Source: Escherichia phage SkaterBoy_Bas90. Taken from it: a stretch of DNA of 64,000 bases. This document shows, one piece after another, positions 26,512-27,961 of the stretch. How positions within the stretch are numbered: position 1 is the stretch's first letter; each line of letters begins with the position of its first letter. The notes beneath the pieces were generated by a model. It was not told the DNA's origin. It did not search any database and saw only the letters and a program-made list of their open reading frames with translations. Location: sequence record PQ850626.1. One strand, 5' to 3'. The translations under genes and the position numbers were made by a program.

Positions 26512-26545
26512 ATAAAAGAAAAGGCCACCTGATTAGGCAGCCTTT
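26512..26545 (-). terminator. rho-independent terminator (same hairpin family)
   Basis: On the - strand AAGGCTGCCTAATCAGGTGGCCTT followed by TTCTTTTATAT. Confidence 0.45.
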
Positions 26546-26548
26546 GTT

Positions 26549-26842
26549 CTAGAGACGAAGCCAAGTTTGATAGTCAGCTTCAGTGTAATGGTTGTTTCGA
26601 GAGTTATTTTTCATTTCCTTGAGAGTAGCTCTCAGGTCAATGTTATGCTCTCTCCTTGTTCTATTCGGGTCTGTATCTTCTAATAGATGGGAGTGATCAC
26701 TACAAGAGTAGTGCTTATAGTGGTCCCTGTATCCTCTACTTGGAGAATACTTGGTCATTAAAGTTGCAACTCTTTTTACACCCTCTGCTTTACAGAATTT
26801 ACAATAAGTGTGAATTGTACATCTTTTTGTTTCTGCTGACAC
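26549..26842 (-). CDS. hypothetical Cys/His-rich protein
   Basis: 97-aa ORF, CxxC and His-rich. Confidence 0.3.
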   Translation of the reverse strand: MSAETKRCTIHTYCKFCKAEGVKRVATLMTKYSPSRGYRDHYKHYSCSDHSHLLEDTDPNRTRREHNIDLRATLKEMKNNSRNNHYTEADYQTWLRL

Positions 26843-26852
26843 TATAACCTCT

Positions 26853-27167
26853 TTATGAGCTTAAAGCTCCTTTGCGTGCTCCAGCTGCTTTTCCAGCTCG
26901 ATCACCACTTTTGCCGCCGTTTGAACGGTTTGAGCTGACTGATTCAACACGTAAGTTGCTTGACGCATTAGAGCCTCCAGACTTGACAGCTCGTTTGTGT
27001 CCAACGTCTTTACCTCTGACAGCAGCTTTTCCATCGCGCTTTTCAACGATGCGACGTGCACGGTGGCGCTGAGCATCTCCGCTCTTGCTCCCAACGCCTG
27101 TTTCACCACGGGCAATTGCGGTACGTCTTTCTTGTGCATAATCTCTCTTTCCTACATGATCTGCCAT
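26853..27167 (-). CDS. hypothetical basic Gly/Ser/Arg/Lys-rich protein (alternative frame over the same DNA)
   Basis: 104-aa ORF with a strong AAGGAG RBS 6 nt upstream of its ATG; low-complexity composition, so it may be a frame artefact. Confidence 0.3.
   Translation of the reverse strand: MADHVGKRDYAQERRTAIARGETGVGSKSGDAQRHRARRIVEKRDGKAAVRGKDVGHKRAVKSGGSNASSNLRVESVSSNRSNGGKSGDRAGKAAGARKGALSS
26861..27139 (-). CDS. hypothetical helical protein (fully overlapped by another ORF in a second frame)
   Basis: 92-aa ORF with protein-like amphipathic composition; AAGAGAG RBS-like sequence upstream. Confidence 0.35.
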   Translation of the reverse strand: MHKKDVPQLPVVKQALGARAEMLSATVHVASLKSAMEKLLSEVKTLDTNELSSLEALMRQATYVLNQSAQTVQTAAKVVIELEKQLEHAKEL

Positions 27168-27223
27168 TTAGAACTCCTTAATATATCAGTGTACACTAAG
27201 GAGTATACATTATAAGTTACTGT

Positions 27224-27961
27224 TTAAGCTTTCTTTTCCATTGCTTTAACAATCGCCTTACAGAAACCAGAACGAACAATATCATCTGATTCACCATCTA
27301 CAATCTCAGCAAACTCATACAGATCATGTTCATCAATAAAGTTAGTAGCCCAAGTAAGACCACTCTCACGACCACGCATATCATGCTGGTTAGTATCGCC
27401 CATGCAGAACAGCTGAGAGGTTTCTCCCAATCGAGTCATGATCGAGAAGGCTTCATCTTTAGTGGTGTTCTGGAATTCATCAACAATAACAATAGCATCA
27501 TTGAAAGAACGACCACGGAGATATTCCAGAGGTACGAACTCAATGTTACTGTTACCGAGCTGGCATTCATAGAATCCCTTACCATATCGCTGAGTAATAA
27601 CATCAATGATAGGCATCAGGTAAGGTTCAAACTTCTCACGCATTCCTCCCGGAAGTAACCCAAGAGAGTTACCCATGCCGACCGAAGGACGACTCAGAAT
27701 GATCTTCTGAATCTTACCGCTCTTCAGTGCATCAATAACCGTGGAAGTGATTACAAAGGTCTTACCACAGCCCGCAGGAGCGTCTGTGAACACAACTTGT
27801 TTAGTCTTAATAGCATTGAGTAGCTCAGACTGAAACTGGTTCTGAGGGACTACAGGCTTTGCTAAAACCACCTCTTCATACTCTCGCTTACCCTTACGAG
27901 TAACAAGTGCTTCCCGACGAAGGTCTTTCCGTGATTCTTTCCGTGATTGACGACGACTCAT
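27224..27961 (-). CDS. phoH: PhoH-like ATPase
   Basis: Walker A DAPAGCGKT and Walker B IVIVDEFQN with overall PhoH-like layout. Confidence 0.7.
   Translation of the reverse strand: MSRRQSRKESRKDLRREALVTRKGKREYEEVVLAKPVVPQNQFQSELLNAIKTKQVVFTDAPAGCGKTFVITSTVIDALKSGKIQKIILSRPSVGMGNSLGLLPGGMREKFEPYLMPIIDVITQRYGKGFYECQLGNSNIEFVPLEYLRGRSFNDAIVIVDEFQNTTKDEAFSIMTRLGETSQLFCMGDTNQHDMRGRESGLTWATNFIDEHDLYEFAEIVDGESDDIVRSGFCKAIVKAMEKKA

Follow-up and report, generated by a model that had tools for sequence, protein, structure and literature searches.

A stretch of 64,000 nucleotides from Escherichia phage SkaterBoy_Bas90 (record PQ850626.1; "the window" hereafter) carries on its minus strand two overlapping open reading frames (ORFs), of which the longer, ORF1 (27167..26853), is an established phage gene and the shorter, ORF2 (27139..26861), is wholly nested within it. 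The comparison of this locus with its relatives leads us to favour, with moderate confidence, the view that ORF2 is an overprinted gene in the +1 frame of ORF1, restricted to Gordonclarkvirinae-like enteric phages, and we infer from the same sequence comparisons that it is translated and functional. Most likely, ORF2 arose by overprinting in the ancestor of these phages, and selection would have kept it since then, mainly against truncation and weakly on its amino acid sequence. Translation of ORF2 would begin at its own ATG, located 28 nt past the start of ORF1 and behind a weak Shine-Dalgarno (SD) sequence, and the product is predicted to be soluble and amphipathic, with the fold of a two-helix hairpin. 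The locus itself belongs to the middle genes of the phage, a Kuravirus (phiEco32/SU10-like coliphage), and is located in the replication and nucleotide-metabolism module. All features discussed below are on the minus strand unless stated otherwise.

The two overlapping frames had been pointed out in a preliminary description of the window, and both were found in the sequence as described there. ORF1 encodes a protein of 104 aa that is, as had been said, very basic (isoelectric point, pI, 11.5) and rich in Gly, Ser, Arg and Lys, while ORF2 encodes a neutral protein of 92 aa (pI 6.8) which includes the sequence MHKKDVPQLPVVKQALGARAEMLSATVHVASLK. The ATG of ORF2 lies 28 nt downstream of the ATG of ORF1, which places ORF2 in the +1 frame, and its span (26861..27139) is fully contained in that of ORF1 (26853..27167). 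The segment is also locally rich in G and C, with a GC content of 0.51 versus 0.42 for the whole window. The preliminary description had left the choice between a chance ORF in a stop-poor segment and a dual-coding locus, and there is something in both halves of that statement: a single open copy is unremarkable, and constraint on the second frame is found across the enteric relatives.

The first half follows from the composition of ORF1. Stops in the +1 frame need a T at the second position of an ORF1 codon, and ORF1 has about 10 Val/Ile/Leu codons in the overlap; with so few codons of this type the +1 frame is intrinsically poor in stops. The ORF1 protein combined with the codon usage of the phage predicts 2.1-2.2 stops in the +1 frame, and typical genes of the window have 5.1 per 100 codons. 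The probability of finding none is about 0.08 for the window, and ranges from about 0.03 to 0.18 for any single sequence, so that one open copy means little. These numbers are the starting point of the main rival explanation, according to which ORF2 is a non-functional by-product of a stop-poor +1 frame (few Val/Ile/Leu/Met codons) that was open in the ancestor and has been maintained by shared ancestry together with recent recombination or spread of the small gene between related phages. We consider this explanation possible but unlikely, on account of the behavior of the frame in the relatives.

The comparative sample consists of 95 unique genes of the ORF1 family, collected with their flanks from GenBank phages, IMG/VR and metagenomes, and grouped on a tree of the ORF1 protein. 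Block A comprises 37 enteric Gordonclarkvirinae-like sequences (36 in the alignment and tree tests), with a GC content of 0.37-0.44 and ORF1 proteins 69-100% identical to that of the window. Block B contains 18 sequences of LUZ24/Bjorn-like Pseudomonas phages, and the other 40 sequences (Grimontviridae, Lahexavirus, marine and soil contigs, and more) served as controls. The expected number of +1 stops was computed for each ORF1 protein with the codon usage of its own locus. The controls have 96 stops versus 105.5 expected, an agreement indicating that the null is calibrated; block A has 0 versus 83 expected, and block B has 6, all at ORF ends, versus 59 expected. Two sequences that group with or near block A, namely L041 and L044, carry 4-6 stops in the frame (6 in L041).

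The +1 ORF is conserved in block A beyond the calibrated neutral expectation also when single substitutions are considered. Substitutions were reconstructed and sorted by their effect in both frames, with an internal calibration on the controls. Changes that are synonymous in ORF1 and create or remove a +1 stop number 54 versus 64.6 expected in the controls (53 versus 52.4 in the low-GC subset), which is neutral behavior, and 2 versus 18.6 expected in block A, where they are about 9-fold rarer (Poisson 2e-6, and 2e-5 after calibration). The direct comparison of block A with the controls for such stop-involving synonymous changes gave Fisher p values of 4e-5 and 2e-6. The relocation null predicts 6.1 stop-creating changes, a figure to be read with the fact that this null overestimates them about 1.5-2-fold in the controls, a point that the by-product explanation can claim in its favor. 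When the relocation test was applied to the +2 frame of block A, 15 stop-creating synonymous changes were counted versus 19.4 expected, which is near expectation.

A simulation of neutral third-position evolution at the stop-risky codons gave a consistent answer. The length of the tree was set by parsimony on the 4-fold degenerate sites of ORF1 (3.36 changes per column, 5.9 resampling units), and the probability that an open ancestor leaves all 36 of 36 tips open was 3e-5, or 1e-3 with the frequencies of the stop-forming bases halved. With a tree 40% shorter, it ranged from 1e-3 to 1.4e-2. A neighbour-joining tree built from the 4-fold sites alone was discarded because its length was probably inflated, and it was replaced by the parsimony-calibrated tree. 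Both the deficit of stop-involving changes and the simulation are based on the synonymous divergence of ORF1 itself, and for this reason they are unaffected by the possibility that the gene is younger than its flanks; both reject neutrality all the same.

Constraint on one frame only, the outcome that the preliminary description had set against dual coding, was looked for and did not occur, as the enteric clade shows, in addition to the avoidance of stops, a ratio of nonsynonymous to synonymous change (dN/dS) of about 0.66 in ORF2 and a conservation of synonymous sites above that of the flanks. In the form used here (dNN/dNS), the ratio for ORF2 rises from 0.66 in block A to 0.85 in block B, and the controls have values of 0.90 (all) and 0.98 (low-GC). 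The value of block A differs from that of the low-GC controls with p = 0.007 and from that of all controls with p = 0.053, hence the signal at the amino acid level is modest. Furthermore, the amphipathicity of the +1 product, measured as the hydrophobic moment at 100 degrees, exceeds that of the +1 products of synonymously recoded ORF1 in 14 of the 14 block A representatives, against a uniform scatter in the controls (Mann-Whitney p = 3e-4). A test of conservativeness with BLOSUM62, which examined whether the synonymous changes of ORF1 are placed so as to cause conservative replacements in ORF2 and was run under the relocation null, gave z = 4.5 in block A and z = 3.5-6.3 in lineages with a broken +1 frame; the null is therefore biased, and the test was dropped.

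The synonymous sites of ORF1 are unusually constrained in exactly the lineages in which the +1 frame is open in the enteric clade. The identity at 4-fold sites is higher in ORF1 than in the flanking genes in all of the 22 block A genome pairs compared: it is 0.75 versus 0.52 between the window and ECBP2, and 0.85 versus 0.43 between L042 and L103 (p = 7e-8), while the PhoH and DNA polymerase genes alone give 0.46-0.60. No such excess was found in the broken lineages, between L041 and block A, or in block B. The excess by itself cannot separate constraint from ORF2 from recent recombination, and it is therefore taken as supporting evidence only. The third positions of ORF1 in block A are composed of 0.36 A and 0.38 T, versus 0.23 and 0.54 in the genes of the phage, and the internal Val codons of block A are all GTT or GTC, although GTA accounts for 29% of the Val codons genome-wide and is used by the outgroups at the same columns.

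A constraint of this kind could also come from a nucleic acid element acting on the synonymous sites of ORF1, be it a structure in the mRNA, a regulatory site or a signal for replication or packaging. A stretch of 40 nt at ORF1 codons ~30-44, whose nucleotides hardly vary across block A, would suit this explanation, as would the promoter and the hairpin that adjoin the gene (see below). On the other hand, RNAalifold gave no conserved RNA structure, its consensus reaching only -8.2 kcal/mol for the 330 columns and incurring a covariation penalty, and the Rfam search gave no match that explains the conservation. Such an element would not keep about 280 nt free of stops in a single frame and leave the +2 frame near neutral, nor would it raise the amphipathic periodicity of the +1 translation, and we regard it as very unlikely.

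The start codon of ORF2 (27137..27139) is formed by the Tyr10 codon of ORF1, TAT, and the G of the codon that follows. It occupies the same alignment column in 35 of the 36 block A sequences, with TAC AAA found in L061. The diversity at the third position of this Tyr codon is 0.14 in block A versus 0.51 in the low-GC controls, where TAT and TAC are about equally frequent, in a comparison that is uncontrolled, as the phylogenetic breadth of the two sets differs. The preliminary description had given each frame its own start signal, which holds in full for ORF1, whose SD is strong, and in part for ORF2, whose ATG is conserved but whose SD is weak. The latter belongs to a purine-rich stretch, AGGAAAGAGAG (27143..27153), which contains AGGA (27153..27150) and AAGAGAG (27149..27143) and also encodes Gly-Lys-Arg of ORF1. 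The pairing amounts to about 4 bp, with AGGA at -14..-11 and a spacing of 10 nt, and the relatives have at this place a purine-rich yet variable sequence in which the SD is not strictly conserved.

At 12 nt upstream of the ORF2 ATG, the +1 frame contains a minimal start-stop ORF (ATG TAG, 27152..27157). Its TAG derives from the Val5 codon of ORF1, GTA; the other Val codons of ORF1 all lie within the overlap, and none of them is GTA. This minimal ORF occurs only in the variants with the N-terminus MADHVG, that is, in Kuravirus, in SU7 (L017), in L038 and in L041.

Programmed frameshifting from ORF1, which would yield an ORF1-ORF2 fusion and not a protein begun at its own ATG, would account for the weak SD and for L061, which has no ATG and yet an open frame; one ribosomal slippage is indeed in use at another place in phages of the SU10 type (Table 1 in PMC4281155). 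The presence of the ATG in 35 of 36 sequences and the rarity of +1 frameshifting speak against it, and no slippery motif turned up, in an analysis that included no search aimed at one. Initiation at the ORF2 ATG is preferred, and a fusion appears hardly credible.

The protein encoded by ORF2 was modelled with AlphaFold2 from the single sequence, with no alignment, and the result was a two-helix hairpin (helices 9-45 and 48-91) with a predicted local distance difference test score of 82.8. The Foldseek search with this model returned generic helical hairpins only, with E >= 0.26. The grand average of hydropathy is -0.10, and the sequence has no Cys, no hydrophobic N-terminus, no signal sequence and no transmembrane segment.

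Several observations weigh against a functional ORF2, in addition to the probability of about 0.08 for a single copy, the weak SD, the modest dNN/dNS signal and the failed BLOSUM62 test mentioned above. ORF2 matched nothing in Pfam, PHROG or NCBIfam, and a collection of 5.8e9 proteins holds only 2 near-identical entries and no homologues outside the overlap. It is much less conserved than its host gene, with 67-71% identity in divergent relatives versus 87-94% for ORF1 and a column entropy of 1.12 versus 0.45, and it evolves about 2.5 times faster. Its GC content at third codon positions is atypical (0.63 versus 0.36 for the genes of the phage). The proteomic study of SU10 searched only the coding sequences (CDSs) predicted by Glimmer, so that ORF2 was outside its database (PMC4281155). 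The ORF or its ATG can be lost, as in L041, L044 and L061. Finally, the statistics were computed on phylogenetically related sequences, and parsimony is imperfect on a gene that recombines.

Recombination is indeed visible at the locus. ES17 (L002, Kuravirus) and SU7 (L017, Suseptimavirus) have in common the upstream sequence and a nucleotide variant of ORF1 codons ~8-27, while the rest of the gene falls in different clades, which indicates intragenic recombination. This process makes parsimony counts too high, and part of the excess of synonymous conservation over the flanks could be due to it. The mosaic nature of the locus, with intragenic recombination, flanking indels and insertions of homing endonuclease genes, agrees with a by-product, as do the fast evolution, atypical composition, weak SD and lack of homologues or domains of ORF2, the practice of annotators of calling ORF1 only, and the open frame of block B that has no other sign of coding. 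Recombination does not explain the frame-specific deficit of stops, because the deficit is measured against the synonymous changes of ORF1 itself, and the probability would stay below 0.01 even if the apparent changes had been doubled by recombination. The dNN/dNS of 0.66 versus ~0.9-1.0, the excess of amphipathicity, and L041 as a natural control also argue against a by-product and in favor of an overprinted gene.

Block B (L008, L010-L014, L029, L064, L074, L076-L078, L082, L083, L087, L088, L091 and L100) is the part of the sample that complicates this picture. Its +1 frame is open for 90-106 codons throughout the LUZ24/Bjorn-like phages, the product is hydrophobic, and stop-involving synonymous changes are rare (3 versus 21.7 expected, p = 2e-4). 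Despite the open frame, there is neither an excess of synonymous-site conservation nor a dN/dS signal, which counts against the reading proposed for ORF2: openness without other coding signals implies that openness alone can have other causes. The fraction of A at third positions is only 0.13, hence the openness may be partly compositional, and the codon-usage estimate for the GC-richer loci of this block may be contaminated by wrong-frame ORFs. The +1 frame of block B may hold a second overlapping gene, different from ORF2, or reflect an effect of composition, and with no synonymous-site or dN/dS signal, it is not claimed as a second proven case.

In LUZ24 itself (Bruynoghevirus), the frame has been annotated as gp26 (L031 614-883, "contains transmembrane domain"), and it corresponds to the +1 frame of the ORF1 homologue (L031 568-879). 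The likeness of gp26 to ORF2 consists in the +1 frame of an ORF1 homologue being kept open; the LUZ24 product is hydrophobic, and it resembles ORF2 little except in what the sequence of ORF1 imposes. A further sequence of low GC content, L059 (Ga0070728_10008541, 269-580), has an ORF1 about 76% identical and a +1 frame that is open throughout but lacks the ATG at its usual position; it fits neither block cleanly, and its +1 product resembles those of block B in being hydrophobic.

ORF1 is a real, expressed and ordinary small HNH-like phage gene. It matches PHROG 4590 with E = 7.4e-41 (residues 4-101 on profile positions 2-99 of 100), and its homologues form at least 200 clusters of proteins of about 100 aa in the collection of 5.8 billion, some of them named HNH endonuclease or McrA at the source. 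Its tblastn search returned 253 phage records, from phages of Escherichia, Pseudomonas, Aeromonas, Vibrio, Proteus, Salmonella and Cronobacter and also from one Planktothrix phage; the search with ORF2 returned only 98, from Escherichia and Shigella phages that are all apparently of the Gordonclarkvirinae type. The deposited records that were examined all annotate the ORF1 frame. The GC content by codon position is 0.63/0.58/0.31 versus 0.54/0.40/0.36 for the genes of the phage, with the third position fitting. The gene corresponds to gp56 of SU10, whose sequence is identical, and to its phiEco32 homologue; SU10 gp56 (10.8 kDa) was detected by mass spectrometry with 2 peptides (PMC4281155).

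The evidence for membership of ORF1 in the HNH (beta-beta-alpha-Me) superfamily is consistent but weak. His57, Asn71 and Asn80 are invariant in the family alignments, within the motif DH...GGSN..SNLRV....N, and among 18 relatives tested with the HNH models of Pfam, 9 weakly match PF01844 (best E = 0.0015), 4 match PF13392 and 2 match PF14279. The ORF1 protein of the window matched no HNH model at E up to 1, and the search against PDB sequences, by single sequence and by profile, gave no match. The family consensus in the HNH motif is VDH, while the window and Gordonclarkvirinae proper have VGH, with loss of the Asp; codons 56-57 (about 26997..27002) read Gly-His in Gordonclarkvirinae proper and Asp-His elsewhere in the family, other block A members included. 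Judging from this motif, the nuclease of the VGH lineage may be attenuated or repurposed. Small stand-alone HNH proteins of phages and the HNH homing endonucleases (I-HmuI, Gme-HNH; PF01844/PF13392) are among the nearest known systems. The names given to the homologues are inconsistent, and include "PhoH-like phosphate starvation-inducible" in XT18, "Cas8 protein" in the Ptacy phages, "cytidyltransferase" in SeKF_80 and "putative restriction endonuclease"; an 84-aa neighbor in ES17 is labelled "autotransporter adhesin". These product names look like errors of annotation transfer.

Upstream of ORF1, its SD, AAGGAG (27174..27179), lies 6 nt from the ATG and is conserved in most Gordonclarkvirinae loci. 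A hairpin of 12 bp with a loop of 6 nt is predicted at 27174..27203, formed by CUCCUUAGUGUA and UAUAUUAAGGAG, in which the arm with the SD (27185..27174) is paired with an upstream anti-SD arm (27203..27192); the minimum free energy is -19.2 kcal/mol for 27215..27130 (z = -2.3). The complementarity ACTCCTT...AAGGAGT, with a different intervening sequence, also occurs in four distant members of block A (L042, L043, L103 and L112). The 5' arm of this hairpin is overlapped by TAATGTATACT (27202..27212), a match to the gp36-sigma promoter motif tAATGTATAtA and a middle promoter between the PhoH gene and ORF1, conserved in the loci of Kuravirus, Suseptimavirus and Nieuwekanaalvirus. In phages of the phiEco32 type the motif sits 6-8 nt upstream of the transcription starts, and the authors of the SU10 study placed a middle promoter between CDS56 and CDS57 (PMC4281155). 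The start region of ORF2 is predicted to be unpaired.

From these elements it may be speculated that the form of the transcript influences the choice between ORF1 and ORF2. A read-through mRNA would carry the hairpin and hide the SD of ORF1, whereas an mRNA started at the TAATGTATA promoter would begin downstream of the anti-SD arm and leave this SD free; with such a switch in Kuravirus, the former mRNA would favor ORF2 and the latter, from the gp36-sigma promoter, ORF1. The switch is also part of a broader view that we find quite doubtful, in which overprinting in the +1 frame of this gene family would be ancient or would have recurred, with two or more distant phage groups keeping the frame open: the enteric phages, with a soluble hairpin as product, and the LUZ24/Bjorn-like ones, with a hydrophobic and transmembrane-like product (gp26 in LUZ24).

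The phage of the window is, by its sequence, a Kuravirus (phiEco32/SU10-like, Gordonclarkvirinae) coliphage, as a region of 1 kb around ORF1 and ORF2 is 98-99.5% identical to phages FS2B, MN03 and SU10. The local gene order begins with a PhoH-like ATPase gene (27961..27224), followed by ORF1, by a gene for a 97-aa protein (26842..26549, PHROG 9585), by several small genes and then by the DNA polymerase gene. The flanks of ORF1 are a hot spot of insertion (26549..26842 in the window, and the homologous positions in L019, L023, L037, L041 and L002). The 97-aa gene is variably present among close relatives; homing endonuclease genes are inserted beside ORF1 in several phages; in E20-1, Bas89 and L041 the ORF1 stop is overlapped by a gene for an HNH endonuclease of 163-164 aa; in L037 ORF1 is followed by an Endonuclease_7 gene; and in ES17 the interval from PhoH to ORF1 is longer by about 800 bases. 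Just past the 97-aa gene lies a strong terminator-like hairpin (26520..26545), with 11 pairs followed by TCTTTTATAT, which accounts for some weak Rfam matches to "Phe_leader" that were set aside as chance.

The preliminary description had also noted an ORF open on the opposite strand, and two are present on the plus strand, of 66 aa (26872..27072) and of 72 aa (26997..27215). Both are by-products. The first is compositional: in its phase stops arise only before Tyr, His or Gln codons of ORF1, and only one such position exists downstream of codon 35, so that the frame is open by default; every relative has 2-3 stops in it. The second is due to chance, as all relatives have 3-8 stops in its antisense frame within the gene.

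Genes nested fully and out of frame within others are well documented in tiny viruses, whereas large dsDNA phages have, to our knowledge, yielded only a handful, with Rz/Rz1 as the classic example. Gene callers are blind to genes of this kind, and phage annotation therefore omits them systematically; if ORF2 is real, one gene is absent from each of the 98 GenBank records in which tblastn found its frame. Several Kuravirus-type isolates have reportedly been described in therapy-oriented studies, for instance ES17 in a preprint on predation in the gut. The case is unusually easy to test, as ORF2 can be removed by changes silent in ORF1, with TAT>TAC dropping the ATG and GTT>GTA making a +1 TAG. 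Furthermore, the control-calibrated test of the avoidance of stop-creating synonymous changes can detect nested genes from sequence alone.

On the evidence of the sequence comparisons, ORF2 would probably add a case to nested overlapping genes such as Rz/Rz1. The arrangement would be that of the spanins of lambda, in which one gene of a dsDNA phage fully encloses a second, read in the +1 frame from a start codon of its own. In lysis, Rz acts with Rz1, a lipoprotein of the outer membrane that carries a signal peptide and a lipobox Cys. In contrast, neither a Cys nor a signal sequence or transmembrane segment is present in ORF2, which resides in the replication and nucleotide-metabolism (middle) module within an HNH-like gene. 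An identity as spanin o-component (Rz1-like) was thus ruled out, since the lipobox Cys and the signal peptide are missing and the host frame is HNH-like and not a membrane protein. The products of Rz and Rz1 act together, whereas no such interaction is indicated for ORF1 and ORF2; the architectures of spanin genes are among the subjects reviewed in PMC6139136.

The overprinting of small phages, as in phiX174 with B within A and E within D, offers the other likeness, that of a young and lineage-restricted ORF in an older conserved gene. The cases of the phiX174 type are experimentally proven and belong to very compact genomes, while ORF2 is found in a dsDNA phage of 77 kb and its case is a comparative one. 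With the overprinted genes of small phages, ORF2 shares an atypical codon usage, a faster evolution, the lack of homologues, and the constraint on the synonymous sites of the older frame.

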